NCBI GenBank assembly: GCA_050874305.1
Contig: JBNMKL010000006.1
Span: 1,651 to 65,650, forward strand
Source of the DNA: Lachnospira sp.
Lineage (GTDB): Bacteria > Bacillota > Clostridia > Lachnospirales > Lachnospiraceae
Direction: 5' to 3'
DNA length: 64,000 nucleotides
Part shown: positions 30,018 through 55,249 of the stretch, in pieces
Layout: each line of letters opens with the position of its first letter
Position numbering within the stretch: the first letter of the stretch is position 1
Made by a program: the position numbers and the translations under genes
Notes under the pieces: model-generated
The model's database searches: none
What the model was told of the DNA's origin: nothing
What the model saw: only the letters and a program-made list of their open reading frames with translations

Positions 30018-30057
30018 AATGCTCTCAAGTTTTTAAACTTGAGGGCATTATTTTTTT
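30018..30057 (+). terminator. Rho-independent terminator directly after element B
   Basis: AATGCTCTCAAGTTT / AAACTTGAGGGCATT plus T7. Confidence 0.75.
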
Positions 30058-30107: not shown

Positions 30108-31112
30108 ATGAATGAAAAATCGCTTGAAGTACTTGATCAGTATGATTTGAATATATACCGCAGTGTGCGGGGCAGGGGAGGCATGATAGTTGTAACAGAT
30201 CAGGGCGATAAGCTCTTGCTGGAGTGTGTAAAACAGGACAAATATTACAAAAGGGAAGATGTGATTACGAGAGCTGTTAAGCAGAGTGGATATGAGTATC
30301 TGGATACATATGTAAAGAATAAAGACGGAGAGATAATATCCGAGGCGGTAGAAGATGGAAGGAAATATGTATTAAAGGATATGTATTCAGGCAGTGAATG
30401 CAATGTCAGAAGTATCCGTGATATTCTTGATGCGGTATCAGCTATGGCAAGGCTTCATATCGCACTTGATAAGGCAGCTGACGTCATAATAAGTGATGAC
30501 AATGAGTTCGTTCTTGCAAGAGGAAATGTTGCAAAGACTATTATAAGACATACTAAAGAAATGAGAATGGCAGGTAATTACCTTAAGAACAAGAAGCAGA
30601 AGACGGAGTATGAAATGAGCATATATAGGAATATGAGCAGTTTTTATGAAGAAGCACAGAAGGCTGTCGGAATGCTTGATAATAAGATTGTGGCAGATGG
30701 AATCACAAAGGCGGACAGTAATAACAGTCTTATACATGGAAATTATACATATCATAATATTATTATAAGTAATGTGGGCGTTGCTGTGACTAATATGGAG
30801 AAATGCAGAGTTGACTCACAGGTGTTTGATTTGTATCAGTTTATGAGAAAGATTCTTGAAAAATATAACTGGGACATTGACCTTGCGTATAAAATGCTGA
30901 ACGAATATGACAGAATTAAGAGAATAAGTGACGAGGATATAGGAATCATGTCAGTTTTATTTGCATTTCCAGAAAAGTTCTGGAAGATAGTAAATCATTA
31001 TTACAACATGAATAAGGCATGGGTATCACCTAAAAGTATTGAAAAGCTTAATGGATGCATTGAACAGAATGTCAGAAGACTTGATTTTGTTGCAACTATA
31101 TGTGCATTGTGA
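30108..31112 (+). CDS. cotS: CotS-family spore coat kinase-like protein
   Basis: MARLH, LIHGNYTYHNI, QVFDLYQFMRKILEK..W, FPEKFWK..N.YY. Confidence 0.8.
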   Translation: MNEKSLEVLDQYDLNIYRSVRGRGGMIVVTDQGDKLLLECVKQDKYYKREDVITRAVKQSGYEYLDTYVKNKDGEIISEAVEDGRKYVLKDMYSGSECNVRSIRDILDAVSAMARLHIALDKAADVIISDDNEFVLARGNVAKTIIRHTKEMRMAGNYLKNKKQKTEYEMSIYRNMSSFYEEAQKAVGMLDNKIVADGITKADSNNSLIHGNYTYHNIIISNVGVAVTNMEKCRVDSQVFDLYQFMRKILEKYNWDIDLAYKMLNEYDRIKRISDEDIGIMSVLFAFPEKFWKIVNHYYNMNKAWVSPKSIEKLNGCIEQNVRRLDFVATICAL

Positions 31113-31178: not shown

Positions 31179-32564
31179 ATGGATAAACATACATCTGCAA
31201 TGAGAAAAATGACAGCTCTTATAATGGGGCTTGTGATATGTGTGTTAAGTTTGGTGGGATGTAGTATAGGCAATGGTAATAAAAGCGGAACGATAACACC
31301 GGGAAGTTCAATACTCACAGCACCTAAGAAGAATATAACAGAAGCAACAACAGGAGCCTCACAGCAGATAACAGTGACAGGCGTATTGTCATATATTGAT
31401 AAAGACAGTAAGAAGGCTAATTTTATAGATACTAATTCGGGCGTTGAATATGAAGTTCCATATTCGGGGGGAACTGTGTTCGCAACAAAGTACGGAACAG
31501 CAATTGCAGCATCTAATCTTATTCTTGGAGAGATATATGATGTTGTGTGCAACAAGAGAGGTGTTGCCACTTCGATAAAGGGTAATCCAGATGCATTTGA
31601 GGTGAGTGGATTCAATAATGTCGAGGTTAATGAATCTAACAGAAGAATAAGTTCAGGTGCATCGACTTATATATACAGTGAAAAGGCGCTTGTTATATCT
31701 GGGGAGGATAAGATACCTATAGCAGAAGTGGTGAAGCAGGATGAAGTAACGCTGCGCGGAATTGGTAATACAGTATATTCGGTTGTGGTTGATAAGGGAC
31801 ATGGATATATAAGATTTACAGGTATTGATGCATTTATAGGTGGATATGCACAGATTGGAAAGAGCCAGTTGTATAATGTCACAGAGGATATGATAGTTAC
31901 AGCATCTGTTGGCACATACAATGTTGAGATAGAGAATGGAACTATAGATGCAACTAAAGAAGTGACAGTTGAGAGCGGACAGGAGACAAAGCTGGATTTC
32001 AGTGAATATGTACAGCCAGCACAGCTTCAGGGAACGGTTAATTTCAGCGTTACGCCATCAGATGCCATTATGTCTATAGATGGTGAGGAAGTGGACTATT
32101 CAGTGCCAGTCCAGTTATCATATGGCTCACATAAGCTTACGCTTGTCAAGAATCATTATGAGGAGTATACAGAGACATTTGTAGTTAAATCTTCATATGT
32201 GACAAAGGTTATAGATATGGTTGCAAAGTCAAGTGCAACAACAAAGGCTTCAACAACTGCAAGCAGTAATACATCAGCAACAACAAAGTCTACGACAAGG
32301 ACTACTGCTGCAGCTACAACTGCTAATAGTGATGGAAGTTACAGCGTTAAGGTAACCTCTCCTGCTGGAGCTGCGCTGTATGTAGACAGTGTTTATGCGG
32401 GAACTGTTCCATGTACATTTAAGAAAACAGAAGGAACTAAGACAATAACACTTACACAAAGTGGGTATAATACAGTTAGCTATTCCATCTCGATAGAGAG
32501 CGGAGCCGGGGATCTGACATACGCATTTCCATCAATGGTTAAGACACAGGAAGGAAGTAATTAG
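31179..32564 (+). CDS. PEGA-domain lipoprotein
   Basis: Lipobox LSLVGC; PEGA-like repeats (VTPSDAIMSIDG..., SPAGAALYVDSVYAG); Thr/Ala/Ser-rich linker. Confidence 0.7.
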   Translation: MDKHTSAMRKMTALIMGLVICVLSLVGCSIGNGNKSGTITPGSSILTAPKKNITEATTGASQQITVTGVLSYIDKDSKKANFIDTNSGVEYEVPYSGGTVFATKYGTAIAASNLILGEIYDVVCNKRGVATSIKGNPDAFEVSGFNNVEVNESNRRISSGASTYIYSEKALVISGEDKIPIAEVVKQDEVTLRGIGNTVYSVVVDKGHGYIRFTGIDAFIGGYAQIGKSQLYNVTEDMIVTASVGTYNVEIENGTIDATKEVTVESGQETKLDFSEYVQPAQLQGTVNFSVTPSDAIMSIDGEEVDYSVPVQLSYGSHKLTLVKNHYEEYTETFVVKSSYVTKVIDMVAKSSATTKASTTASSNTSATTKSTTRTTAAATTANSDGSYSVKVTSPAGAALYVDSVYAGTVPCTFKKTEGTKTITLTQSGYNTVSYSISIESGAGDLTYAFPSMVKTQEGSN

Positions 32565-32566
32565 AT

Positions 32567-33760
32567 ATGAATATTCCATTTTCACCACCAGATATTACTG
32601 AGGAGGAGATTAAAGAGGTAACAGAGGCACTCCGCTCAGGCTGGATAACTACAGGCCCTAAGACCAAGGAGCTTGAAAGAGAAGTTGCGGAGTATACACA
32701 TTCAAGCAAGGCAGCAGCACTTAATTCTGCGACTGCATGCATGGAGATGGCTCTCAGGATATTCGGTGTTGGACCAGGAGACGAGGTTATCGTTCCTGCA
32801 TATACTTACACTGCATCAGCGAGTGTTGTGTGCCATGTCGGAGCCACACTTAAGCTGATAGATGTAGAGAAGGGCACATATCATCTTGATTATGACAGAA
32901 TAGAAGAGCTTATTACTGACAAGACTAAGGCTATAATACCTGTTGATATAGCCGGTGTCATGGTTGATTATGACAGGATAAGGCAGATTGTCATGAGCAA
33001 AAAGGGCATATTTAAGCCAGCTAACAAGATGCAGGAGGCACTTGGACATATACTTATACTTGCAGATTCAGCTCATGGATTTGGTGCATCAAGAGATGGT
33101 GTCATGAGTGGACAGGCGGCAGATTTCACAAGCTTTTCATTCCATGCTGTTAAGAATTTCACAACAGCAGAGGGTGGTGCGCTTGTCTGGAGAGACATAG
33201 ATGGCATTGACAATGAGGAGATATATCATCAGCTCATGCTTCTTACGCTTCATGGACAGTCTAAGGATGCGCTGGCTAAGACTAAGCTCGGTGCATGGGA
33301 ATATGACATAGTAGGTCCATATTACAAATGCAATATGACAGATGTGCTTGCAGCTATCGGACTTGCACAGTTCAGAAGATATGATGGAATGCTTGCGAGA
33401 AGAAAGCAGATGATTGAGCGTTATACAGCAGGAATAGAAAGAGATGGAATAAGTGTTATTAAACATTATGACGAGCATGTATGTTCAAGTGGACATCTCT
33501 GCCTTGTAAGGCTTGAGGATGCAGATGTGCAGAAGAGGAATGACCTTATAACAGCTATGGCAGAACGTGGAATAGCAACTAACGTCCACTTCAAACCACT
33601 TCCTATGCACACAGCATACAAGAATCTTGGTTTTGATATTAAAGATTTCCCTAATTCATATGAAATGTATAAGGGTGAGATTACACTTCCGTTACACACA
33701 CGTTTAACAGATGAGCAGCTTGAATATGTTATTGATAACTTTAACCAGCTCACAAGATAA
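32567..33760 (+). CDS. DegT/DnrJ sugar aminotransferase of the AATGal type (WcfR / pneumococcal Spr1654-like)
   Basis: IPFSPPDI, LRSGWITTGPKTKELE, DSAH, SFHAVKNFTTAEGG, LHGQSKDALAK..LGAWEYDI, NVHFKPLP. Confidence 0.9.
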   Translation: MNIPFSPPDITEEEIKEVTEALRSGWITTGPKTKELEREVAEYTHSSKAAALNSATACMEMALRIFGVGPGDEVIVPAYTYTASASVVCHVGATLKLIDVEKGTYHLDYDRIEELITDKTKAIIPVDIAGVMVDYDRIRQIVMSKKGIFKPANKMQEALGHILILADSAHGFGASRDGVMSGQAADFTSFSFHAVKNFTTAEGGALVWRDIDGIDNEEIYHQLMLLTLHGQSKDALAKTKLGAWEYDIVGPYYKCNMTDVLAAIGLAQFRRYDGMLARRKQMIERYTAGIERDGISVIKHYDEHVCSSGHLCLVRLEDADVQKRNDLITAMAERGIATNVHFKPLPMHTAYKNLGFDIKDFPNSYEMYKGEITLPLHTRLTDEQLEYVIDNFNQLTR

Positions 33761-33779
33761 ACGCGATTAAGGAGGATAT

Positions 33780-34466
33780 ATGAGGCTTAAAGGATGGAAT
33801 CATCTTCCTGACAGGATGAAGACCAAAGAAGTCAGACGATATTATAATATACTTGTAAGGCATACAGGGTGGTTTAAGGTAAAGCGTATAATGGATATAG
33901 TTGTAAGCTCGATAATGCTTGTGGTTCTGGCACTTCCGATGCTTGTTATCGCAGTGATGATTAAGCTTGATTCGAGGGGGCCTGTGTTTTTCAGGCAGGA
34001 GCGTGTAACCCAGTATGGACGTATATTCAGAATATACAAGTTCAGAACTATGGTTAACAATGCACAGAAGCTTGGGACACAGGTTACAGTTGCGCATGAT
34101 GCAAGAATAACCAAAGTTGGCAGAATATTAAGAAAATACAGATTAGATGAATTTCCACAGATATTCAATATCCTTGCAGGAGATATGACACTTGTCGGCA
34201 CAAGACCAGAAGTGCCTAAATATGTGAACCAGTATACAGATGAGATGTATGCAACACTTCTTCTTCCAGCAGGACTTACATCGAGGACAAGCATTGCCTA
34301 TAAAGATGAGGACAAGCTTTTAAAAGATGCAGATGATGCGGACAAGGTTTATGTAGAACAGATTCTTCCAGTCAAGATGAAGTATAATCTTGAGAGCCTT
34401 AGAAGATTCGGTGTTATAGAGGATTGTTCGGTACTGTGGAACACATTTAAGTCAGTTATCAAATAG
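33780..34466 (+). CDS. Priming phosphoglycosyl transferase (WcfS / Spr1655 / PglC-like)
   Basis: KRIMDI, IKLDSRGPVFFRQER, KFRTM, RLDEFPQ..NIL.GDM..VGTRPE. Confidence 0.92.
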   Translation: MRLKGWNHLPDRMKTKEVRRYYNILVRHTGWFKVKRIMDIVVSSIMLVVLALPMLVIAVMIKLDSRGPVFFRQERVTQYGRIFRIYKFRTMVNNAQKLGTQVTVAHDARITKVGRILRKYRLDEFPQIFNILAGDMTLVGTRPEVPKYVNQYTDEMYATLLLPAGLTSRTSIAYKDEDKLLKDADDADKVYVEQILPVKMKYNLESLRRFGVIEDCSVLWNTFKSVIK

Positions 34467-34502
34467 TCATATGGCTGCATGTGACAGAAAGAGTGAAATA
34501 CA

Positions 34503-35576
34503 ATGCTTACATGTACCATATGTGTAATTGCGTATAATGAGGAAAAATCGATTAGAACCATACTTGATTGTATCAGCAGTCAGGATTATGGCCATAATCT
34601 TTGTGAAGTTATTTTGGTTGACGGGGCTTCAACAGATAATACGAAGGCTATAATGCAGGAATATGCTGATAATAACAGCAGGCTTGATAGTCCATTCAAG
34701 AGAATTGTTGTGCTTGATAACCCTAAAAAGACACTCCCAAGTGGATGGAATGTGGCTTTGGCAGAGTATAAATGTGATGTGATAATCAAAGTTGATGCCC
34801 ACGCTGAGATTCCAAGCGATTTTGTCAGCAAGAATATAAAGGTGCTTGAGAGCGGCGAGGATGTCTGCGGCGGCATAAGACCAGCTATATTAGATGAGTC
34901 TACACCATGGAAAGAGACACTCCTGCTTGCAGAGAACAGCATGTTTGGCTCAAGCATTGCACCATACAGGAACAATCCGGGAAAGACATACGTGAAATCA
35001 CTGTTTCATGGGGCATACAGAAGGAAAGTATTCGACAAGATAGGCGGCTTTAACGAGGAGCTTGTAAGAACTGAGGATAATGAGATTCATTACCGCATGA
35101 GGGAGGCGGGCTTCAAGCTGTGCTTTGACCCGGATATTGTGTCTTACCAGCACATAAGAAGCAGTCTGCCTAAGATGCTCAAACAGAAGTATTCTAATGG
35201 ATACTGGATAGGCATAACGGCAAAGAAGTGTCCAAAGTGTTTATCAGTGTATCATTTTGTGCCGTTTGCATTTGTGAGTGCCATCGGTTTGTCGGCTATA
35301 GGTCTGGTGTTTACCGGGCTGGCAGGACGATACAGCATATTCATAAAAAAGCTTGGCAATATAATTAAATTCCTTACAAAGCTTATGTGGGGAGCATATG
35401 GGGTGCTGGCTGTAGTTATGTCAGTTGTGGCAGCCATAGGTGCTGGCAAGAAGCGCAATAAGACCAATATAGCACTGCCAGCGTTATTTCTTATGCTTCA
35501 TGTAAGTTATGGCGTGGGAACCCTTGCGGGAATACTGAAAAAGGAGTCCAATGATGGAAGAGACAAGGAAAGATAA
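34503..35576 (+). CDS. GT2 glycosyltransferase (ExoA / Spr0091-like)
   Basis: VIAYNEE, VDGASTDNT, VDAH, RTEDNE, C-terminal TM helices. Confidence 0.88.
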   Translation: MLTCTICVIAYNEEKSIRTILDCISSQDYGHNLCEVILVDGASTDNTKAIMQEYADNNSRLDSPFKRIVVLDNPKKTLPSGWNVALAEYKCDVIIKVDAHAEIPSDFVSKNIKVLESGEDVCGGIRPAILDESTPWKETLLLAENSMFGSSIAPYRNNPGKTYVKSLFHGAYRRKVFDKIGGFNEELVRTEDNEIHYRMREAGFKLCFDPDIVSYQHIRSSLPKMLKQKYSNGYWIGITAKKCPKCLSVYHFVPFAFVSAIGLSAIGLVFTGLAGRYSIFIKKLGNIIKFLTKLMWGAYGVLAVVMSVVAAIGAGKKRNKTNIALPALFLMLHVSYGVGTLAGILKKESNDGRDKER

Positions 35577-37416
35577 GTTGCAGTTACTGGTAAGAAGATT
35601 TTTTCTTATCATAACGGATATAGTCCTGATTAATGGAAGCATTATTCTTGCATTGGTTATGAGATTTGATGTGAATATATCGTTAATTGAGCCGCAGTAT
35701 ATAGATAATTTTAAGGATACATGGATATTATTCACTATAATTACGCTTATTATATTCTGGTTTTTCAGGATGTATCACAGCCTATGGCAGTATGCGAGTA
35801 TTGCAGAGCTGTACAAGATAGTTGAGGCATGTATAGTTGCGGAGATTGCTTATCTTGCCATGACAGCTATATGGGGTAAGATGCTTCCAAGATCATGCTA
35901 TTTTACTGCCGGTGTATTCATGACAGTTGCCATGTGTACAAGCAGATTCATGTACAGAATAATAAGAACATTAATCCAGAATTACAGACATACATCAGAA
36001 CAGATTAACATAATGATTATCGGTGCTGGTGAGGCAACTAATGTACTTATGAGAGAGATTGCCAATTCAAGATATCTTGATAATTCCAAGGTTGTTGCGA
36101 TTATTGATGATGACCCACTAAAGATTGGCAAATTTATACGAGGCGTAAAAGTTGTTGGTAACAGGAACAATATCAAGGAGTATGCAAGATATTATGAAGT
36201 TGATGAGATAATATTTGCGATTCCATCAGCTTCTACCAAGACAAAGAGGGAAATCCTTAACATATGTAAGGAGACACCTTGTAACTTAAAGATAATTCCT
36301 GGCGTATACCAGATGATGGATGGCGAGATTAATGTCAAGGATATCAGAAATGTTGATGTGACCGACCTTCTTGGCAGAGACCCGATTAATGTTGACCTTG
36401 AATCTATTATGGGATATGTATCAGGTAAGACAGTACTTGTAACTGGTGGTGGCGGCTCTATAGGTTCGGAGTTATGCCGTCAGCTTGTAAAGCATGGGCT
36501 TAAAAGACTTATTATATTTGATATATATGAAAATAGTGCTTACGATATACAGCAGGAGCTTAAAAGGGATTATCCAGATGCAGATGTTGTCACGCTTATT
36601 GGCTCAGTAAGGAATACGAGCAGACTTGAATGGATATTTGACAATTACAGACCAGATATTATATATCATGCAGCGGCACATAAGCATGTTCCACTTATGG
36701 AGGACAGCCCTAATGAAGCTGTTAAGAACAATGTAATAGGAACACTTAATGTTGCAAGAATGGCTGATAAATATAATGTGAAGCGTTTCGTTATGATAAG
36801 CACGGACAAGGCGGTTAATCCGACTAACATAATGGGTGCAACTAAGAGAATCTGTGAAATGATAATCCAGTATTTTAATGAAAAGTCAGCCACAGAATTT
36901 GTTGCAGTAAGATTTGGTAATGTACTTGGAAGCAATGGTTCAGTTATTCCGCTTTTTAAGAAGCAGATTGAAGCGGGAGGACCTGTGACAGTAACTCATC
37001 CTGATATTATAAGATACTTTATGACAATTCCAGAGGCGGTATCGCTCGTCATTCAGGCTGGTGCATATGCCAAAGGTGGTGAGATATTTATACTTGATAT
37101 GGGTGAGCCTGTAAAGATAGATGACCTGGCAAAGAATCTTATCAGGCTGTCAGGGTATACACTTGGTGTTGATATGGAGATTAAATATACAGGTCTTCGT
37201 CCGGGTGAGAAGTTGTATGAGGAACTTCTTATGGATGAGGAGGGACTTCAGGATACAGCGAACAAGCTTATCCATATTGGAAAGCCTATAGAATTTGATA
37301 AGGAAGGCTTTGAGGACAAGCTCGAGACAATTAAAGAAATCGCATATTCGGAATCAGAGAAGGATGTGCGTGAATATATTAAAGAGATGGTTCCAACATA
37401 TAGACCTAAGCAATAA
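35551..37416 (+). CDS. UDP-GlcNAc 4,6-dehydratase (CapD/PglF family, membrane-anchored)
   Basis: Four N-terminal TMs; IIGAG; VTGGGGSIGSEL; HAAAHKHVPLME; ISTDKAVNPTNIMGATK; VRFGNVLGSNGSV. Confidence 0.95.
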   Translation: MMEETRKDKLQLLVRRFFLIITDIVLINGSIILALVMRFDVNISLIEPQYIDNFKDTWILFTIITLIIFWFFRMYHSLWQYASIAELYKIVEACIVAEIAYLAMTAIWGKMLPRSCYFTAGVFMTVAMCTSRFMYRIIRTLIQNYRHTSEQINIMIIGAGEATNVLMREIANSRYLDNSKVVAIIDDDPLKIGKFIRGVKVVGNRNNIKEYARYYEVDEIIFAIPSASTKTKREILNICKETPCNLKIIPGVYQMMDGEINVKDIRNVDVTDLLGRDPINVDLESIMGYVSGKTVLVTGGGGSIGSELCRQLVKHGLKRLIIFDIYENSAYDIQQELKRDYPDADVVTLIGSVRNTSRLEWIFDNYRPDIIYHAAAHKHVPLMEDSPNEAVKNNVIGTLNVARMADKYNVKRFVMISTDKAVNPTNIMGATKRICEMIIQYFNEKSATEFVAVRFGNVLGSNGSVIPLFKKQIEAGGPVTVTHPDIIRYFMTIPEAVSLVIQAGAYAKGGEIFILDMGEPVKIDDLAKNLIRLSGYTLGVDMEIKYTGLRPGEKLYEELLMDEEGLQDTANKLIHIGKPIEFDKEGFEDKLETIKEIAYSESEKDVREYIKEMVPTYRPKQ

Positions 37417-37431
37417 TCTGGAGGCGTGTGG

Positions 37432-38520
37432 ATGAAATACGTTATTAACGGTAATTTTCTGTATGGTGCTGTGCTTGGTGTGCAGCGTTATGCAAGAGAG
37501 ATTACAGCTCAGCTAGATAAGTTAATAAAAGATAAGCCATATGAGGTAGAGATTGTCATGCCGTCAATTGACAGTGACGGGACATCTGTATTTGTCAGCA
37601 AATATCAGGCGTTATACAGCAATATAAAGGTTGTTGTGATAGATGGTGTGGCAGGAAGAAAATGGGATCAGATAGATTTTAACAGATATGTTAAAAAGGA
37701 AAATGCAAAGCCAGTGTATCTGTGTAATGAGGTATCTTTATTCATGAAGAATGGAATAGCTGTTATACATGATATAGCATTCAAGACACATCCGGGGTTC
37801 TTCACAGAACCGGGAGACTGGCATGAGATATTGTTCAGAAAGCTTATGTACCGCACCGCATTTAAGAAAGCAGATGCGGTTATAACAGTAAGCGAATTTT
37901 CCAAGAAAGAGATACTTGGTAATTACAGATTGAAAAATCCGGACATAATTGTTGCAGGCAATGGATGGCAGCATTTTAACACGGACAATATAGATGAGCA
38001 TATATTTGACCAGTATGCGAGCAGGATTAAGCGTGGCAGTTATTATTTCTACATGGCATCACTTGCGCCTAACAAGAATCTTAGCTGGATAGCGGAGAAT
38101 GCTAAGAACAATCCACATTCGACATATGTTATTGCAGGTAAATCGCTGGGAGATAAGTCAGATATAACAAAATATCCTAATGTTGTGTATGTAGGATATG
38201 TGTCAGATGCCACAGCAAGGGCACTTATGAAGTACTGCAAGGCATTCCTGTTCCCTTCGACTTATGAAGGATTTGGAATACCACCTATGGAAGCGTTATG
38301 TATGGGAGCAAAGGTAGTGCTTGGTGATATACCAGTATTGCATGAGATATATGAGGATGTGGCGAAATACATCAATTGTAATAATCCGGCAGTTAATCTG
38401 GATTCACTGGTTGATGGCTGGTATCTTGATGAGGAACGTGTTGTAGAGGTATTAAAAAAACATTCATGGCTTGAATCGGCTAAGAAGCTGTGTGAATGTA
38501 TGGACAGGGAGGCTGTATGA
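37432..38520 (+). CDS. GT4 glycosyltransferase
   Basis: GVQRYAREI, IHD, ITVSEFSK, FPSTYEGFGIPPMEA. Confidence 0.9.
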   Translation: MKYVINGNFLYGAVLGVQRYAREITAQLDKLIKDKPYEVEIVMPSIDSDGTSVFVSKYQALYSNIKVVVIDGVAGRKWDQIDFNRYVKKENAKPVYLCNEVSLFMKNGIAVIHDIAFKTHPGFFTEPGDWHEILFRKLMYRTAFKKADAVITVSEFSKKEILGNYRLKNPDIIVAGNGWQHFNTDNIDEHIFDQYASRIKRGSYYFYMASLAPNKNLSWIAENAKNNPHSTYVIAGKSLGDKSDITKYPNVVYVGYVSDATARALMKYCKAFLFPSTYEGFGIPPMEALCMGAKVVLGDIPVLHEIYEDVAKYINCNNPAVNLDSLVDGWYLDEERVVEVLKKHSWLESAKKLCECMDREAV

Positions 38521-39605
38521 AGATAGCGATTGATGCCAGAACACTTGGCAGCAGACCAAGCGGTGTTGGCATGTATCTTAATGATTTTTTGAAGCAGCTT
38601 ATTAAGTATGAAGATTTGGAATTCGTTCTTATATCAGATGTTGCAGAGAGTGAATATATTAAGTTTTTCCAGAAACATGGGATAGAAGTGTATACACAGG
38701 GAAAGCAGGTGTATCGCAGCGCGGGAGTATATTCATACTTCTCATATGTGCAGAGTGTTCTTGATAAGGTAAAACCAGATATATTCTGGGAAGTCAATAC
38801 AGTTATTCCGATTAAGCTTAAAGGCAGCTTTAAGACAATGATAACAGTACATGACATGTTCCCTATAGAGTATGTCGAGTATTTTGGCAGGGTATACAGC
38901 CTGTATTTCCGACATGGACTTTCAAAGACATTGAAAAATACGGACATGATTTTGTATAATTCGATGCAGACCAAGATGACAACGGAAAAATATTTCCCTA
39001 GAAGCAGGAATATTACTAACTGCAATGCATATATAATATCAAACCCATTGAAGGATAAGTGGGATTGCAGTGATGAAGGATATTTTCTGTATGTAGGCAA
39101 TATGGAGAAGAGAAAAGGCGTAGACCTTCTGATTAAAGGATATAGAAGATACCGCGCAGACGGTGGAGACAAGAAGCTGGTTCTTGCCGGCAAGATGCAG
39201 GAGGAGGATATAAGACAGCTTGTTGCTTCTGCGATAGAGGAGGATGGCAATATAACTTATCTTGATTATATAAGCCATGATAAGAAGCATGAGTTATATT
39301 CCAAAATGTCTGCATTTGTATTTCCATCTAAGGCGGAGGGGTTTGGCATGCCAGTTATTGAGGTTATGAAGTTTAACAAGCCTATCATAGCAAGCAATCT
39401 TCCTATATTTGATGAGATAGCGCAGGGCAATATCAATACATTTGATATTAATTGTGGGGAGAAGGAACAGATAGATAATCTTAGCAGGATTCTTTTCAGA
39501 TATAACAGCGTTGTGGATGAGGAGTCCTACAAGGAGACAGTGGACAGGTATGCGCCTGAGAAGCTGGGTAAAACAGTTTATGATTTTATAATGGAGAACA
39601 GATAG
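38517..39605 (+). CDS. GT4 glycosyltransferase
   Basis: IAIDAR, TVHD, YVGNMEKRKG, FPSKAEGFGMPVIE. Confidence 0.9.
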   Translation: MKIAIDARTLGSRPSGVGMYLNDFLKQLIKYEDLEFVLISDVAESEYIKFFQKHGIEVYTQGKQVYRSAGVYSYFSYVQSVLDKVKPDIFWEVNTVIPIKLKGSFKTMITVHDMFPIEYVEYFGRVYSLYFRHGLSKTLKNTDMILYNSMQTKMTTEKYFPRSRNITNCNAYIISNPLKDKWDCSDEGYFLYVGNMEKRKGVDLLIKGYRRYRADGGDKKLVLAGKMQEEDIRQLVASAIEEDGNITYLDYISHDKKHELYSKMSAFVFPSKAEGFGMPVIEVMKFNKPIIASNLPIFDEIAQGNINTFDINCGEKEQIDNLSRILFRYNSVVDEESYKETVDRYAPEKLGKTVYDFIMENR

Positions 39606-39607
39606 AT

Positions 39608-40870
39608 ATGAGCGGGCTGTCAAAGATAGTTCTTAAAGGAGCAGAGAAGCTTCGTCCGGTTCTTGTAAGATGTATACCTAAGAGTGTATTGTCGAAGGTC
39701 AAGGCAGGGATGATTAACCGTGAGGCCAGAGGCATTGCACAGATAGATATAGAGAGATTTGATAAGGATGCATTTCCATTCGGGGTTAATCTTATAGGTG
39801 ATATCCGGGTTGATACCGGACTTGGACAGAGCATGAGATATGTGTCTGCGATTCTTGATGCCGCAGGTGTGCCTAATCTTATATATAATTATTATGTGCC
39901 ACCGGGAATGAATATGTCAGACCATTCGTGTGATGATAAGATTCAGGATAAGTTAAAATACAGTATCAACATATTCCATATCAATGCAAGTGAGATGGCA
40001 GTTGCATTCATGGATTTAGGGAAAGAGTTCTTTGACAGACATTATGATATAGGCTTCTGGCTCTGGGAGATGGAGGATTTTCCGGAAGAGTGGATGCCGG
40101 CATTTAATCTGATAGATGAGCTTTGGGTTCCATCAGATTTTGAGAATAAGATATTTAAAAAATATACAGAAAAACCAGTATACACTGTATCATATCCAGT
40201 TACAGCCAAGGCTGATGAGCAGTATGACAGAGAATATTTCGGTCTGCCAGATGACAGATTTTTATACATGATGATGTATGATGGTGGAAGCGGTGCGCCA
40301 AGGAAGAATCCGGGAAAGGTTATAGAGAGCTTTAAGAAAGCATTTAAACCAGATAACACGGAAGTCGGTCTTGTAGTTAAGCTGAAAGCGAACAGTGACG
40401 CAGACATTGAGTATATTAAGAGTCTTACACAAGGATATGACAACATATATTTTATTGATAAAAATATGTCAAGAACGGAAGTCAACAGCCTTATAAAGTG
40501 TGTTGATGTGTTCGTGTCACTTCACAGGGCAGAGGGCTTCGGGCTTATATGTGCCGAGGCGATGGTGCTTGGAACGCCGGTTATAGCAACGGCGTGGTCT
40601 GCAACTACACAGTTTATGAATGAGAGCTGTGCCTGCATGGTTGGTTACAGGATGGTTGAACTTGAGAAGGACTATCCACCATTCAAGAAAGGATACAGGT
40701 GGGCAGAGGCAGACTGTGATGAGGCGGCAGCATTTATGAGAAGATTATTTGATGATAAGGAATTTTATGGTATAATGAAAAGTAATGCGCGTCAATATGT
40801 GCATGAAAAGCTGTCGATGGAGCAGTCATCGGCATTTGCAAGAGACAGACTTAATGTTATTAACCAATAA
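39608..40870 (+). CDS. GT4-like glycosyltransferase
   Basis: GLGQSMR, IGFWLWE, RKNP, VSLHRAEGFGL..AEAM. Confidence 0.85.
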   Translation: MSGLSKIVLKGAEKLRPVLVRCIPKSVLSKVKAGMINREARGIAQIDIERFDKDAFPFGVNLIGDIRVDTGLGQSMRYVSAILDAAGVPNLIYNYYVPPGMNMSDHSCDDKIQDKLKYSINIFHINASEMAVAFMDLGKEFFDRHYDIGFWLWEMEDFPEEWMPAFNLIDELWVPSDFENKIFKKYTEKPVYTVSYPVTAKADEQYDREYFGLPDDRFLYMMMYDGGSGAPRKNPGKVIESFKKAFKPDNTEVGLVVKLKANSDADIEYIKSLTQGYDNIYFIDKNMSRTEVNSLIKCVDVFVSLHRAEGFGLICAEAMVLGTPVIATAWSATTQFMNESCACMVGYRMVELEKDYPPFKKGYRWAEADCDEAAAFMRRLFDDKEFYGIMKSNARQYVHEKLSMEQSSAFARDRLNVINQ

Positions 40871-40893: not shown

Positions 40894-41670
40894 GTGAAAC
40901 ATTTAAAAGAGTTATATGAGTACAGGGAGATGATAATAAGCCTTGTAAAGAGAGACCTGAGGGGAAGATATAAGGGCTCGGTTCTTGGATTCTTATGGAC
41001 CTTCATCAATCCATTGCTTCAGCTTCTTGTATTTACAATGGTTTTCTCGATTATTATGAGAGCTGGATATGAGCAGTATTATCTGTTCTTATTCGTTGCA
41101 CTGGTGCCTTGGATGTTCTTTGCATCAAGCGTTCAGGATGGTTCTATATCTATTATCAGAGAAAAAGACATGATTAAGAAGATATATTTTCCAAGAGAGG
41201 TTATGCCAATAGCTACAGTAACAAGCGGATTTGTGAATATGATGCTTACGTTTATAGTCATATTCGTAGTTCTGATTATATCTGGAAGAGGCGTTAATCC
41301 TCTTGCTTTGTTATGTCTGCCTATAGTTATGATTGTTGAGTACATATTGTGCCTGGGAATTGCTATGATAGTTGCTGCACTTACAGTGTACTTCAGGGAT
41401 TTACAGTACATTCTTGGAATTGTAACAATGGCATTACAGTATATGACACCAGTTATGTATGGAAGTGAGATGGTTCCAGACTGGGCTCTGCCAATATTTA
41501 AGGCGAACCCTATGACACCAATAACAGAGATGTACAGACAGATACTGTACTACAAAGAGATACCACATCTTATGTCTTTACTGTATGTACTTGGTATAGG
41601 AATAATATTCATTGCACTTGGCTTCTTATGCTTTAATAAGCTTCAGAAGGGATTTGCAGAGAACTTTTAG
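40894..41670 (+). CDS. wzm: ABC-2 polysaccharide exporter permease
   Basis: RDLRGRYKGSVLGFLWTFINPL, KIYFPRE, YFRDL, NPM. Confidence 0.93.
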   Translation: MKHLKELYEYREMIISLVKRDLRGRYKGSVLGFLWTFINPLLQLLVFTMVFSIIMRAGYEQYYLFLFVALVPWMFFASSVQDGSISIIREKDMIKKIYFPREVMPIATVTSGFVNMMLTFIVIFVVLIISGRGVNPLALLCLPIVMIVEYILCLGIAMIVAALTVYFRDLQYILGIVTMALQYMTPVMYGSEMVPDWALPIFKANPMTPITEMYRQILYYKEIPHLMSLLYVLGIGIIFIALGFLCFNKLQKGFAENF

Positions 41671-41696
41671 TTTGTGTATGCAATATGGAGGATAAG

Positions 41697-42941
41697 ATGA
41701 AAGATCAGAACAACGCCATAGAGGTAAATAATGTTACCAAGCATTTCAAGGTATATTATGACAAGGGAAGTGAATTAAAAGAGAAGGTATTATTCTGGAA
41801 GCGCAATAAGTACGAGAACAGAACGGTGCTTGACAATATAAGCTTCTCAATCAAGAAGGGCGAGGCAGTAGGTCTTATCGGCAAGAATGGCTGCGGTAAG
41901 AGTACAACACTTAAACTTCTTACTAAGATTATATATCCTAACAGCGGCAATATCGAGATGTGCGGAAGAGTATCAAGCCTTATCGAGCTTGGCGCAGGAT
42001 TTCATCCTGATATGAGCGGACGAGAGAATATCTACACTAATGCGGCGATATTTGGACTCAACAAGAAAGAGATAGATGCAAGACTTGATGATATAATTGC
42101 ATTTTCTGAACTTAATGAATTCATAGATAACCCGGTAAGAACATACTCATCAGGAATGTATATGAGACTTGCGTTCTCGGTTGCCATCAATGTTGATGCG
42201 GACATTCTTCTTATTGATGAGATTCTTGCGGTTGGAGATGCCAATTTTCAGGCAAAATGTTTTAACAAGCTTAGAGAAATCAAGGCGGCAGGAACAACTA
42301 TCGTAATTGTATCACATTCACTTGGACAGATTGAGCAGATATGTGACCGCTCTATCTGGATTAAGGAAGGTCATATTGAGATGGATGGAACTCCTAAGGA
42401 TGTCCATCTTGAGTACCTTGATTACATGAACAAGGAGAGAATGGATCAGGCAGAAAAAGACAGAATTCGTGAGGAGACTAAGGCTGCCAAGGAGAGACTT
42501 ATCAAGAGATATGGAGATAAGAGGGCGCAGTTTACAGATATCAGGATGCTTAATGATGCCGGTGAAGTCCAGAAGACATTCAGAACTGGCGAGAGCATAA
42601 CACTTGACCTGAACTACCATATCAATGAAAAGATTACAGACGGTGTGTTTGGATTCGGTATATTCAGAAGTGATGGCTTATGGTGCTATGGAACGAACAC
42701 AAGAATAGATAGGTTTAATAACTTTGATATTGATAAGGATGGACATTATACAGTAAAGCTTGAGAATATAATGCTTATTCCGGGCGAATACTGGGTTGAT
42801 ATAACAATCGAGTGGGGCGAGGGTAATCCGGTTGATTACTACAAGGAAGCCATGAGATTTGAAGTTGTGTCTAATGTGAGCGATGTGGGAGTATTAAGGA
42901 TGCCACACAACTGGCAGTTTGATGATAAGAACATTCAGTAG
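41697..42941 (+). CDS. wzt: ABC polysaccharide exporter ATPase with C-terminal Wzt_C domain
   Basis: GKNGCGKST, GAGFHPDMSGREN, YSSGM, LLIDE; ~150-aa Ig-like tail. Confidence 0.93.
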   Translation: MKDQNNAIEVNNVTKHFKVYYDKGSELKEKVLFWKRNKYENRTVLDNISFSIKKGEAVGLIGKNGCGKSTTLKLLTKIIYPNSGNIEMCGRVSSLIELGAGFHPDMSGRENIYTNAAIFGLNKKEIDARLDDIIAFSELNEFIDNPVRTYSSGMYMRLAFSVAINVDADILLIDEILAVGDANFQAKCFNKLREIKAAGTTIVIVSHSLGQIEQICDRSIWIKEGHIEMDGTPKDVHLEYLDYMNKERMDQAEKDRIREETKAAKERLIKRYGDKRAQFTDIRMLNDAGEVQKTFRTGESITLDLNYHINEKITDGVFGFGIFRSDGLWCYGTNTRIDRFNNFDIDKDGHYTVKLENIMLIPGEYWVDITIEWGEGNPVDYYKEAMRFEVVSNVSDVGVLRMPHNWQFDDKNIQ

Positions 42942-49459: not shown

Positions 49460-50653
49460 ATGAAGAAGAAAATTGCTATTATTAACCAGAGATATGGACT
49501 TGAAGTAAATGGTGGTTCAGAGCTTTACTCAAGACAGATTGCAGAGAGACTTATTGCCAAGTACGATGTGGAAGTGTTAACTTCATGTGCTGTTGAATAT
49601 GTCAAATGGTCTAACTATTACAAAGAGGGCGTTGAGACAATCAACGGCGTAACAGTAAGAAGATTTAAGACAGTTCATGAGAGAATTCCTAAGATATTCT
49701 CAGCACTTGATTCATATATGCTCTCTAACCCGGATGCAGATGTTGAGACATCTGATAAATGGATAGAGAATATGGGACCATATTGCCCAGAGCTTGTTGA
49801 ATATGTAGACGAGCATCAGGATGAGTATGAGGCGATTATTGTAGTCACATACCTTTATTATACTGCTGTTAAGAGCATAGTAAGAATTAAGGATAAGGCT
49901 ATATTTATCCCTACAGCACATCAGGAGCCATTCATACATTTTGATATGTATAAGAAGGTGTTCGGGGCAGCAGATGCCTTTGTATTCCTCACTGATGAGG
50001 AGAAAGACCTTGTACATGCAATCTTCCACAACGAAGATGTTCCATATGAGGTTATGGGTGTCGGCGTAGATGTGCCAGCACAGGTGGACAGTGAGCGTTT
50101 CAAGAAGAAATATAATCTTGATGAGTATATTATATATGTAGGACGAATTGATGAGGGTAAGGACTGTCCAAGACTTTTCAAGTATTTCCTTGAGTATAAG
50201 AAGAGAAATAAGAATAATTTAAAGCTTGTTCTTATGGGAAAGGCTGTGTGTGATATCCCTAAGAGTCCTGACATTATAAGTCTTGGATTTGTGAGTGATG
50301 AGGATAAGTTTGATGGAATCAAGGGCGCAAAAGCGCTTATACTTCCATCTAAATTTGAGAGCCTTTCAATATCAGTTCTTGAGGCAATGACACTCTCGAT
50401 TCCTGTTATTGTTAATGGTATATGTGATGTATTAAAGGGACACTGTGTTAAAAGCAATGGTGGTCTTTATTACAAGAATTATTTTGAATTCGAAGGATGT
50501 GTTAATTATATGCTTGAACATCCAGAGGAATACGAGATGCTTTGTGCTAATGCACGAAAATATGTTGAAGACTACTTCCAGTGGGACGATATCATGAAGA
50601 AATTTGACAGAATTATTGAGAGAGTGGGAAATTCATCGCATGACAAAGATTGA
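49460..50653 (+). CDS. GT4 glycosyltransferase (paralog of 48277-49455)
   Basis: GGSE, YVGRIDEGK, LPSKFESLSISVLEAM. Confidence 0.9.
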   Translation: MKKKIAIINQRYGLEVNGGSELYSRQIAERLIAKYDVEVLTSCAVEYVKWSNYYKEGVETINGVTVRRFKTVHERIPKIFSALDSYMLSNPDADVETSDKWIENMGPYCPELVEYVDEHQDEYEAIIVVTYLYYTAVKSIVRIKDKAIFIPTAHQEPFIHFDMYKKVFGAADAFVFLTDEEKDLVHAIFHNEDVPYEVMGVGVDVPAQVDSERFKKKYNLDEYIIYVGRIDEGKDCPRLFKYFLEYKKRNKNNLKLVLMGKAVCDIPKSPDIISLGFVSDEDKFDGIKGAKALILPSKFESLSISVLEAMTLSIPVIVNGICDVLKGHCVKSNGGLYYKNYFEFEGCVNYMLEHPEEYEMLCANARKYVEDYFQWDDIMKKFDRIIERVGNSSHDKD

Positions 50654-52439
50654 TTATAAGAAATATATAATGTGGGCGGCAATTGCAGTATTATATGTGT
50701 TGTGCTTTAAGATAGTTATACAGAGTGGATATATGTTTGATGACATGTGGACATATATAGACAAGGGTGTAGCCATAAGCAATGATACAAGTGTAACACA
50801 GATGGTATTAGAGAGCATACACAGATGGGCTTCGTCGTATGGAAGAATACTTATATTTTCATTTTACTGCGAGTTTGCATTATGTTATCTGCCTCTTGTT
50901 GTATACAAGGGATTGATAGTTGCCGCCATGTTTCTTGATGGATTAGTTCTCGCAGGCATTATTAAAGAACTTACAGGCTCTAAGAGGTTATCATATCTTA
51001 CAGTTATTATATTTCCGGCAGTGCTGTCAATGAGAGCAACGTATTACACAGGAGTATATGGATTTCATGGGCTGGTACAGTTATGTCTGCTGCTTGTGCT
51101 CAGTGCAGTATATTGTTACATAAGATATCGTAAGACGGAAAAGACAGCGTATCAGGTGGCAAGCTGTGTTTTCTGGTTTATGGCACTTGGAATGTATGAG
51201 GTGTCATATGTTTTGTGTGTATGCTTTATAGTTGCTCTTATATGTATTGATGGATGGGATTATGTGAAAAATAATTTCTGGAAATCAATTAAGACAGGAC
51301 TTCCACAGATAATAATAATGATTTTCTGGGTGGTTGCCAATGTTATAGCAAGAATGCTTGCAACTGGCGATTATGATGGAGCTACCCCAAGTTTTTCAAT
51401 AAGTAAGATAATAATTACATTTATTAAACAGTGTTCAGGTGCACTTGGATTCGGTGCTGCACTGGCTGATTGGAAAAATCAGGAGCCGGGATTCTGGAAA
51501 GAATATATATCTGAGTATGTAGGAATTATACAGATATTGACATATGTGCTGGTGTTTGCAGCTTTAATATATGTATTACTAAGATTAAAAGATGTATCGG
51601 TTAATAAGCTTTCGTCAATGTTCTGGATGGGTGCACTTCTTGTTGTGATGCCATCGCTGCTTATAAGTGTGTCTGTCAAGTATCAGAAGGAAGTTGACTG
51701 GTTTCAGGGATACATTCCATCATACTTCGGAAGCTGGGGGTTTGCCCTGATAGCTGCAACGGCGGTTGTTATGATTGGAAAGAAAATTGTTAATTCTAAA
51801 GCATTTATATGCTTTAATGTTGCGGCGGCACTTGTATTTACAGGAATATTCGCATTTGACAATATTGTTGGTGCTTATTCGGTTGAAGATGTCAATATGT
51901 TCTATCAGAATGATGTTGACACAATGCTTGACAGCATAGATTCGGGTATGTTTGATGCTATAGGAGAGGATGAATATTTTCTTGATACATCATATTCAAC
52001 ATACACACTTGATGGAGATTATACCAACAGGGCGTACACAACGTGGCTTGGAAGGAAATGCAAGGCGCGTGGCTGGGATGATATATACGCAGATAAAGGC
52101 AATACAGCAGCATTAAATGATGAATACACCAGAATGAAGAATAAGGGATTTAAGGTCGTTAATCATCTCGCCAAATGGTATGTTGTTATGGCAGATTGCA
52201 ATAATCTGGAATTAAAACTTGGAAATGAAGGATATGAGTACAAGGCGTATGTATCAGGAATGGATATGTTTGTTTATGATTATTCCCCAGATACATTTAC
52301 ATGCAAAGATATCAATGGCGGCAGAATAAGAGTTAATCTGTCAGATGGAAATGTTGTTAGGACAGGCCGGTATGGCAGTGTATATCATTTTGATTTTTCA
52401 AATGATATTGATATTAGTTCTATTGTTATAGGTGAGTAA
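50640..52439 (+). CDS. Multi-pass membrane protein, GT-C-like
   Basis: N-terminal TM followed by FDD acidic loop, ~11 TMs, soluble C-terminal domain. Confidence 0.55.
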   Translation: MTKIDYKKYIMWAAIAVLYVLCFKIVIQSGYMFDDMWTYIDKGVAISNDTSVTQMVLESIHRWASSYGRILIFSFYCEFALCYLPLVVYKGLIVAAMFLDGLVLAGIIKELTGSKRLSYLTVIIFPAVLSMRATYYTGVYGFHGLVQLCLLLVLSAVYCYIRYRKTEKTAYQVASCVFWFMALGMYEVSYVLCVCFIVALICIDGWDYVKNNFWKSIKTGLPQIIIMIFWVVANVIARMLATGDYDGATPSFSISKIIITFIKQCSGALGFGAALADWKNQEPGFWKEYISEYVGIIQILTYVLVFAALIYVLLRLKDVSVNKLSSMFWMGALLVVMPSLLISVSVKYQKEVDWFQGYIPSYFGSWGFALIAATAVVMIGKKIVNSKAFICFNVAAALVFTGIFAFDNIVGAYSVEDVNMFYQNDVDTMLDSIDSGMFDAIGEDEYFLDTSYSTYTLDGDYTNRAYTTWLGRKCKARGWDDIYADKGNTAALNDEYTRMKNKGFKVVNHLAKWYVVMADCNNLELKLGNEGYEYKAYVSGMDMFVYDYSPDTFTCKDINGGRIRVNLSDGNVVRTGRYGSVYHFDFSNDIDISSIVIGE

Positions 52440-52453
52440 AGAAAGGGTTGCAT

Positions 52454-54427: not shown

Positions 54428-55249
54428 ATGAACGAGAATTTAAAGAAAGCACAGGATTCTAACAGATACACAATGAGAAAGCTTCATGAGGTGTGTCACA
54501 AGTATGGAATAAGATATTACTATGATTCAGGCGCACTTATTGGTGCAATAAGACATAAGTCATTCATTCCTTGGGATGACGATATTGATGTGGCATTCAC
54601 AAGGGAAGAGTATAACAAGATAATGGCGCTTCCAGCAGAGGTATGGGGCGATGATTTTAAGCTTGTTACAAGCAGACAGCTTACACCAGGTGGATTTCTT
54701 GATGTTGTCACAAGACTTATCAATGTGAGGGATGAAGTGCCATTAAAGACATATGATAAGTGCATTAAGAAGTTAAAACCAGAATTCAAGGATAGAATAG
54801 GAATAGATTTCTTTATTCTTGACAATGCATATGACAGCGCTTTCAAGCAGAAGCTGCTTAGAATGAGACTTACATTCGTGTACGGACTTGCTATGGGACA
54901 TAGAGACTATATTGACCTTTCAGAGTACAGTGGTGTATCTAAGGCTGTTGTCGGTGTGCTTGCAGTTCTCGGTAAGTGTTTCAGCCTTAACTACCTTTAT
55001 AACAGATATGACAAGATAAGCACATCTGTTAAGGGTGAGACTGGCAGATATTTTTACAGCAATTATCCAATCAACCTTATAGGCATTGATGTTAAAAAGG
55101 AATGGTTCAGGGATGTTGTAGAAGTGTCTGTTGATGATGATATGTTTGATGCACCGATAGATTACGATAATGTGCTTAAAGCAGCATATGGCGATTATAT
55201 GCAGCTTCCACCAGTTGAGAAGCAGATTCCGGATCATGTTCTTATATAG
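54428..55249 (+). CDS. licD: LicD-family phosphotransferase
   Basis: YYDSGALIGAIRHKSFIPWDDDIDV, IDFF.LD, YGDYMQLPP. Confidence 0.9.
   Translation: MNENLKKAQDSNRYTMRKLHEVCHKYGIRYYYDSGALIGAIRHKSFIPWDDDIDVAFTREEYNKIMALPAEVWGDDFKLVTSRQLTPGGFLDVVTRLINVRDEVPLKTYDKCIKKLKPEFKDRIGIDFFILDNAYDSAFKQKLLRMRLTFVYGLAMGHRDYIDLSEYSGVSKAVVGVLAVLGKCFSLNYLYNRYDKISTSVKGETGRYFYSNYPINLIGIDVKKEWFRDVVEVSVDDDMFDAPIDYDNVLKAAYGDYMQLPPVEKQIPDHVLI

Follow-up and report, generated by a model that had tools for sequence, protein, structure and literature searches.

A conserved four-gene block in Lachnospira as a probable primer operon for a cell-wall polysaccharide starting with 2-acetamido-4-amino-2,4,6-trideoxygalactose

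Which sugar starts the surface polysaccharide encoded on contig JBNMKL010000006.1 of a Lachnospira sp. genome (GenBank assembly GCA_050874305.1), and how often would that sugar recur in the finished chain? The stretch analysed here, called the window, covers 64,000 nucleotides (positions 1,651 to 65,650 of the contig, forward strand) of a metagenome-assembled genome (MAG; 81 contigs, 99.86% complete), whose best genomic match is an uncultured Lachnospira MAG from Hadza gut samples with 98% protein identity. A first-pass annotation had proposed that positions 32567 to 37416 of the window hold a start module for 2-acetamido-4-amino-2,4,6-trideoxygalactose (AATGal) and that the resulting polymer may be zwitterionic. 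The AATGal start module is well supported by our sequence comparisons, and the module belongs to the known AATGal initiation kind represented by Spr1654/Spr1655 of Streptococcus pneumoniae and WcfR/WcfS of Bacteroides fragilis. The four genes probably form a core operon of Lachnospira for the lipid-linked primer of a cell-wall polysaccharide, in which AATGal would occur once per chain. The block consists of the following genes.

32567-33760, + strand: DegT aminotransferase, 397 aa (Pfam DegT_DnrJ_EryC1, E 3.9e-92)
33780-34466, + strand: small phosphoglycosyl transferase (PGT), 228 aa (Pfam Bac_transf, E 4.3e-55)
34503-35576, + strand: GT2 glycosyltransferase, 357 aa (Pfam Glycos_transf_2, E 6.4e-24)
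35551-37416, + strand: PglF-type membrane 4,6-dehydratase, 621 aa (Pfam Polysacc_synt_2, E 1.3e-123, plus CoA_binding_3)

The initial reading of these genes as an aminotransferase, a priming PGT, a GT2 enzyme and a CapD-type dehydratase in one block was confirmed by Pfam for all four. The motifs quoted for the aminotransferase (IPFSPPDI, LRSGWITTGPKTKELE and LHGQSKDALAK) are likewise all present in its translation. Among all PDB sequences, the closest match of this enzyme was 6EWJ (Spr1654; 514 bits, E 2.3e-153), followed by ArnB-type enzymes at 177-211 bits and Campylobacter jejuni PglE (1O61, 4ZTC) at 73-76 bits. The 6EWJ structure is that of Spr1654, an essential aminotransferase of the pneumococcal teichoic-acid pathway to which AATGal formation has been assigned, and for which the residues of the pyridoxal phosphate (PLP) site have been listed (PMC5936713). 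The alignment with Spr1654 extends over 394 residues with zero gaps and 56% identity, while identities of 44% to WcfR, 34% to Escherichia coli ArnB, 28% to WecE and 26% to PglE were observed. The PLP lysine and aspartate motifs are conserved: SFHAVKNFTTAEGG and DSAH are the same as in Spr1654, and NSAT has retained its Thr. The motif pattern had been likened to both Spr1654 and WcfR; this likeness holds only in part, as WcfR has LNCQTKDAFSK. Membership in the PglE type was not indicated, with 75.6 bits to 1O61 and no PGT-PglD-PglE arrangement at this locus.

A maximum-likelihood tree of 34 sequences (LG+C20+F+G4), the check suggested by the first-pass annotation, placed the window enzyme together with Spr1654 and WcfR in one clade (support 100/99, stem length 1.57). 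This clade also includes homologues from Veillonella, Bacteroidales, Erysipelotrichaceae and others, and WcfR is its most divergent member, on a long branch. ArnB is sister to the clade, and the PglE-type enzymes form a separate clade (100/97) with which the window enzyme does not group. By clade and active-site residues, the aminotransferase is a Spr1654 (AatB)/WcfR-clade PLP-dependent sugar 4-aminotransferase, and its predicted reaction is the conversion of UDP-4-keto-6-deoxy-GlcNAc to UDP-AATGal, the galacto epimer being assigned by clade membership. A second DegT gene in the genome was considered as an alternative AATGal enzyme and rejected, as it is RfbH-like and located in a CDP-sugar block.

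The B. fragilis WcfR and WcfS sequences used in these comparisons were recovered from gut-metagenome contigs through published cloning primers (PMC13063421 supplement), in the right order and spacing. The translated WcfR has 407 aa and ends in VIAENR, as the reverse primer demands, and WcfS has 195 aa. A search with the wcfS primer succeeded, while an exact search with the published wcfR forward primer gave no match. Every natural wcfR copy recovered is at least one base off this forward primer (PMC13063421 supplement). In the copy that was translated, the mismatch turns codon 6 from Ser (IPFSPP) into Leu (IPFLPP), possibly through a strain difference or a typographical error in the primer table.

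The PGT is more similar to the B. fragilis-type WcfS (44%, 158 bits) than to a PglC-like PGT (36%, 86 bits). It belongs to the small monotopic enzymes of the WcfS/PglC size class and is predicted to transfer AATGal-1-phosphate to undecaprenyl phosphate. In Parabacteroides goldsteinii, a Spr1654-like aminotransferase with 64% identity to the window enzyme is followed by a PGT that is 70% identical to WcfS, in agreement with the 69.3% identity to WcfS given for the PGT of P. goldsteinii strain RV-01 (PMC11641655). This pairing of a Spr1654-like aminotransferase with a WcfS-like PGT indicates that Spr1654-like and WcfR-like aminotransferases serve the same type of PGT.

The dehydratase gave 318 bits to C. 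jejuni PglF/WlaL (5BJU) versus 152-160 bits to FlaA1/CapE types. N-terminal hydrophobic segments, a CoA_binding_3 domain and an SDR domain place it in the PglF/WbpM type, and its motif ISTDKAVNPTNIMGATK corresponds to TDK with Met replacing Tyr. The TDK motif with Met for Tyr is the mark of PglF/WbpM-type retaining UDP-GlcNAc 4,6-dehydratases. It has been demonstrated experimentally that PglF feeds WcfR, and that PglF, WcfR and WcfS together suffice for the formation of bactoprenyl diphosphate (BPP)-linked AATGal (PMC13063421). The GT2 enzyme has weakly hydrophobic C-terminal segments and is found beside the PGT at 52-93% identity in Lachnospira-clade loci. Its donor and acceptor are not assignable, the top PDB match reaching only 41 bits, and its predicted role is to attach the second primer sugar.

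The first-pass annotation had further stated that the window contains no PglD/NeuD-type acetyltransferase, and it had suggested a genome search for a 4-N-acetyltransferase. Profile searches extended this absence to the whole genome, where the best TIGR03570 score was 66.6 bits (cut-off 160.8) and zero PglD_N matches were found. The partial hexapeptide-repeat matches in the genome comprise three Maa/LacA-like O-acetyltransferases, one GlmU-C-like and one CysE-like protein, as read from sequence alone. We also compared the neighbours of Spr1654-like aminotransferases in 80 related loci: a PGT lies immediately downstream in 73 of them, and a full-length PglD-like neighbour gene was found in none of the 80. 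As a positive control, P. goldsteinii contains a PGT followed by a NeuD-family acetyltransferase (220 bits, TIGR03570) and a PglE-like aminotransferase (311 bits, 1O61). Strain DSM 19448 of this species carries the PglC-PglD-PglE-like trio and a WcfR/WcfS-like pair in one genome (L134:6419-8776 and L051:9962-11793), which makes it a natural contrast of bacillosamine-type and AATGal-type start modules. Across about 55 kb of the Lachnospira locus, acyltransferase, ATP-grasp and Fem-like families gave no match except one MBOAT (DltB-like) protein. It is preceded by open reading frame (ORF) 44005, which has no family match, and the two resemble a pair for extracellular O-acylation. Neither ORF 44005 nor ORF 46736 was assigned to a family by relaxed searches of Pfam and NCBIfam. 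From these results, we infer that the 4-amine of the primer sugar would remain free.

The genes of the block lie close together. The aminotransferase and PGT are separated by 19 nt and the PGT and GT2 by 36 nt, the GT2 ORF runs 26 nt into the dehydratase ORF, and no terminator-like site was found on the + strand between 31179 and 38850. The region 5' of the block contains the following features.

30018-30049: strong terminator, at the end of the preceding cca gene
30108-31112: homologue of CotS-family spore-coat kinases (167.9 bits, cut-off 172.7)
31179-32564, + strand: PEGA-domain lipoprotein (Pfam PEGA, E 3.5e-12; lipobox LSLVGCS)

The lipoprotein stop codon lies 2 nt 5' of the aminotransferase start. 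The CotS-like ORF was considered as a pathway member and rejected, since the strong terminator and a promoter-like site lie 5' of it and it has no glycan link, though its synteny is conserved. L. eligens, L. intestinalis and other loci of the Lachnospira clade keep the order from CotS-like gene and PEGA lipoprotein through aminotransferase, PGT and GT2 to dehydratase; in L. multipara and L. pectinoschiza, the synteny match begins at the PEGA gene. The genes 3' of the block vary between Lachnospira-clade loci, and the dehydratase is the last of the glycan genes in L. eligens and L. multipara. Among the Lachnospiraceae genera sampled, 45 of 300 (about 15%) have an aminotransferase homologue at E <= 1e-100.

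No other initiator was found in the genome. The PGT of the block is the sole Bac_transf gene in this assembly, and the MraY/WecA family is represented by a single gene, as it is in 7 of 7 related isolate genomes. Since this lone gene must serve as MraY, the group would have no TagO/WecA. It is located at C49:9533-10498 (- strand, 321 aa), and the neighbouring ORFs are not co-oriented with it. The conservation of the block across Lachnospira, the variable genes 3' of it and the absence of another initiator point to a conserved primer or linkage-unit operon and not to a strain-specific capsule gene set.

How often AATGal would occur in the polymer depends on the export route, and here the downstream genes become relevant.

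37426-40870, + strand: three GT4 glycosyltransferases (Pfam Glycos_transf_1), predicted to assemble the chain or an adaptor on the primer in the cytoplasm
40894-41670, + strand: Wzm permease (Pfam ABC2_membrane, E 2.2e-18)
41685-42941, + strand: Wzt ATPase (Pfam ABC_tran) with a C-terminal carbohydrate-binding Wzt_C domain (E 1e-31)
50640-52439 and 52448-54244, + strand: two membrane glycosyltransferases of GT-C fold, from AlphaFold models and Foldseek
54428-55249, + strand: LicD phosphotransferase (Pfam LicD, E 2.6e-24)
55290-56486, + strand: MOP/Wzx-like membrane protein with 12 hydrophobic segments, a TacF-like candidate (Polysacc_synt, 27.8 bits)
56393: NTP-transferase-PLP fusion
58367-60037: LicC-LicA fusion

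Wzm and Wzt, which also gave NCBIfam matches of the TagH/Wzt type, are predicted to form the ATP-binding cassette (ABC) exporter of the finished chain. The GT4 genes are co-conserved with Wzm/Wzt in loci L001, L003 and L012, and partly in L024 and L029. The ABC-transporter-dependent pathway builds one chain on one undecaprenyl diphosphate (Und-PP)-linked sugar primer, so that the sugar placed by the PGT occurs once, at the reducing end. Because the Wzm/Wzt route with Wzt_C builds one chain per primer, AATGal probably serves as no more than the linkage sugar at the reducing end, and by itself it would then not render the polymer zwitterionic in the manner of B. fragilis polysaccharide A (PSA), Sp1 or pneumococcal teichoic acid. 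Of the proposed zwitterionic polymer bearing AATGal and phospho-amines, the start module is upheld and the LicD, LicC and LicA genes are all present downstream as annotated, while the charge pattern is weakened by the expected single AATGal per chain and by the finding of no uronate or pyruvate genes and no recognisable Wzy in the locus. The accompanying claim of export by Wzm/Wzt rather than TacF or Wzy agrees with the genes found, except that it had overlooked the MOP/TacF-like candidate beside LicD.

Both GT-C proteins were modelled, with a predicted local distance difference test (pLDDT) score of 73 for 50640-52439 and 93.3 for 52448-54244. The top Foldseek matches of both are PglB/STT3, ArnT and DPY19, joined by Emb for 50640-52439 and by AftA for 52448-54244. 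In both proteins, the first transmembrane (TM) segment precedes a DD motif, which is invariant at residues 34-35 in 50640-52439. The latter belongs to a narrow family with 15 clusters in 5.8 billion proteins; 52448-54244 (598 aa) belongs to a large family with 4829 cluster representatives at E <= 0.001 and no Pfam model. The glycan locus runs past the window (C6:66164-84997) with ManC, Gmd, a GDP-sugar reductase, GtrA, two GT2 enzymes, Glf, a ManC/ManA fusion and YfhO, and no acetyltransferase is present in this extension. A CDP-sugar set with the RfbH-like DegT and a thiamine diphosphate-dependent enzyme was also identified there, possibly for a branched or 3,6-dideoxy sugar.

A pathway can be proposed from these genes. 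The PglF-type dehydratase would convert UDP-GlcNAc to UDP-2-acetamido-2,6-dideoxy-xylo-hex-4-ulose, and the aminotransferase would convert this keto-sugar to UDP-AATGal, with glutamate as the amino donor if the preference of Spr1654 carries over. The small PGT would place AATGal-1-phosphate onto undecaprenyl phosphate, and the GT2 enzyme would attach the next sugar to the AATGal primer. In this species, the GT4 enzymes may then lengthen a single chain per primer in the cytoplasm, Wzm/Wzt would export it, and the GT-C enzymes and LicD would decorate it, LicD possibly through phosphodiester-linked amino-alcohols. One of three LCP enzymes, encoded elsewhere in the genome, probably joins the chain to peptidoglycan. 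Each chain would then carry a single AATGal, its 4-amine free, at the reducing (linkage) end, where it would take the role of the TagO-derived GlcNAc of other Firmicutes.

Several observations weigh against this reading. The C4 stereochemistry is not readable from sequence, the product of Spr1654 was itself deduced from the structure of pneumococcal teichoic acid, and WcfR, the enzyme that has been tested biochemically, has a long branch in the tree and only 44% identity to the window enzyme. The amine may also be N-acylated by an enzyme encoded elsewhere in the genome, be it a GNAT, an ATP-grasp, a Fem-like or another unrecognised one. The sole MraY/WecA-family gene scores just 91.8 bits on the mraY model, below the cut-off of 192, so that either MraY is unusually divergent here or another explanation applies. 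The seven related isolates each have one to five extra PGT matches, including a conserved large PGT of about 470-500 aa. As the 81-contig MAG has no such large PGT, the finding of a single PGT may partly reflect assembly gaps; either an exopolysaccharide locus is absent from the assembly or the loss is real. The MOP candidate beside LicD also leaves room for a second, Wzx-type route starting from the same PGT.

This last point leads to a polymer like pneumococcal teichoic acid or PSA, in which Und-PP-AATGal repeats with LicD-added phospho-amine would cross the membrane through the MOP protein at 55290 and be polymerised extracellularly, with AATGal in every repeat. We regard such a polymer as unlikely here. 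It draws on the 12-TM MOP-like ORF directly after LicD, an arrangement that resembles the tacF-licD gene neighbourhood of the pneumococcus; moreover, any Und-PP-linked unit must begin with the sugar of the sole PGT found in this assembly, and CDP-amino-alcohols would come from the LicC-LicA and NTP-transferase-PLP genes. However, the MOP match falls under the Pfam cut-off (28.2 bits) and has no NCBIfam match, and no Wzy- or WaaL-type polymerase was recognised in the locus, where the two large membrane proteins without a family are both GT-C. Several relatives keep Wzm/Wzt with Wzt_C alongside the start block and the first GT4 genes, and the GtrA/GT2 pair just downstream offers undecaprenyl phosphate-linked substrates instead. 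Ribitol-phosphate, uronate and pyruvate genes were not found in the locus, and its ORFs, scanned from 30090 to past the window end, gave no match to pyruvyl-transferase or UDP-sugar dehydrogenase families.

A different doubt concerns the primer sugar itself, which could be the gluco epimer (N-acetylbacillosamine) or carry a 4-amine acylated by an enzyme outside the PglD/NeuD type. The stereochemical limit given above, the locus ORFs without a family (44005 and 46736 among them) and the three Maa/LacA-like acetyltransferases elsewhere in the genome would allow this. The strong clade membership with two AATGal enzymes and the greater similarity of the PGT to WcfS argue for AATGal, and the lack of PglD-like neighbours, the survey of acyl-transferring families with MBOAT as its single match, and the O-acylation appearance of the MBOAT pair argue for a free amine; we consider a different primer sugar quite improbable. 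It is very improbable that the module primes protein glycosylation (S-layer, flagellin or general) with a GT-C enzyme as oligosaccharyltransferase. Campylobacter and Neisseria protein glycans do start with related 4-amino sugars, and PglB and STT3 are among the top Foldseek matches, but TM-scores to ArnT and AftA are equally good, and a wall polymer agrees with the three LCP genes and with Wzm/Wzt plus Wzt_C. The GT-C proteins were rejected as PglB-type oligosaccharyltransferases because the WWDxG motif occurs in none of the three GT-C proteins.

The probable primer operon shares features with several known systems and coincides with none. As in S. pneumoniae, whose Spr1654 is the closest solved relative with the same PLP residues (the sequence comparison with this set was made for Spr1654 alone), the gene after the aminotransferase encodes a small PGT (Spr1655 in the pneumococcus), an N-acetyltransferase is lacking, and LicD and LicC/LicA occur in the same organism. 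The pneumococcal set combines Spr1654 and Spr1655 with the dehydratase Spr0092 and the glycosyltransferase Spr0091, whereas all four genes form one operon in Lachnospira. In the pneumococcus, it is likewise the first sugar that becomes joined to peptidoglycan or glycolipid (PMC5727136). In contrast to the pneumococcus, the Lachnospira dehydratase is of the large membrane PglF type, the locus has Wzm/Wzt export with AATGal expected per chain and not per repeat, and it has no ribitol-phosphate genes. Of the hallmarks of pneumococcal type IV teichoic acid (TarI/TarJ, TacF, a repeat polymerase and LicB), the window contains only the weak MOP candidate; no TarJ-like dehydrogenase or LicB was found in it, and an NCS1 permease stands in the place of LicB.

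The B. fragilis PSA system (WcfR, WcfS and UngD2, for which PglF can substitute) has an aminotransferase in the same clade (100/99), a related PGT and the same aminotransferase-PGT order. It differs in an aminotransferase identity of only 44%, in a dehydratase encoded outside the locus, and in Wzx/Wzy dependence with a pyruvate negative charge per repeat, neither of which was found in the Lachnospira locus. Zwitterionic polysaccharides of the PSA and Sp1 kind have AATGal in every repeat together with a negative charge per repeat, from a pyruvate ketal, uronic acid or phosphate; AATGal in every repeat is unlikely here, though the sub-threshold MOP candidate leaves some room for it. The C. jejuni Pgl pathway to diNAc-bacillosamine (PglF-PglE-PglD-PglC) has the same dehydratase type, keto-sugar intermediate and use of a 4-amino sugar as lipid-linked primer, whereas the Lachnospira aminotransferase falls outside the PglE clade (26%), PglD is absent and the PGT is nearer to WcfS. 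With the ABC-exported wall polymers of Gram-positive bacteria, namely TagGH wall teichoic acids, streptococcal and lactococcal rhamnans and enterococcal Epa, the locus shares Wzm/Wzt (TagG/TagH-like) export, cytoplasmic growth on one primer, GT-C side-chain decoration and LCP ligases in the genome. As far as is known, these polymers start with a TagO/WecA-family GlcNAc-1-phosphate transferase, whereas Lachnospira has no TagO/WecA and instead has a Bac_transf PGT with a 4-amino sugar. We know of no earlier description of AATGal-1-phosphate initiation among ABC-exported wall glycopolymers of Gram-positive bacteria.

The less usual and novel part of this system, although it is unproven, would be that a genus lacking TagO couples the module to an ABC exporter. 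AATGal operons as such are widespread: a published screen of more than 8000 genomes for wcfR orthologues found such operons in hundreds of genomes from diverse bacterial orders (PMC10167101, citing Neff 2016). Our literature search turned up no paper joining AATGal with Lachnospiraceae, the genome list of Neff 2016 lying outside its coverage. The wcfR/wcfS-like genes serve as a marker in screens for zwitterionic polysaccharides, and the present locus indicates that they are not by themselves predictive of a zwitterionic repeat; where an ABC transporter exports the chain, the amino sugar should occur at its end alone.

Lachnospira, formerly the Eubacterium eligens group, is an abundant commensal that degrades pectin. 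Among bacterial inducers of interleukin-10 (IL-10) and regulatory T cells, glycans with AATGal are the best known. L. eligens has been reported to induce IL-10 in vitro (PMC12163728). The conserved AATGal primer operon provides a testable candidate molecule in the cultivable species L. eligens, L. multipara and L. pectinoschiza. We tentatively suggest, as a possibility still short of an even chance, that Lachnospira, and perhaps about 15% of Lachnospiraceae genera, replaced the TagO/GlcNAc-1-phosphate linkage unit with an AATGal-1-phosphate primer feeding an ABC-transporter pathway. If this is true, a free amine would be present at the peptidoglycan junction of every chain.

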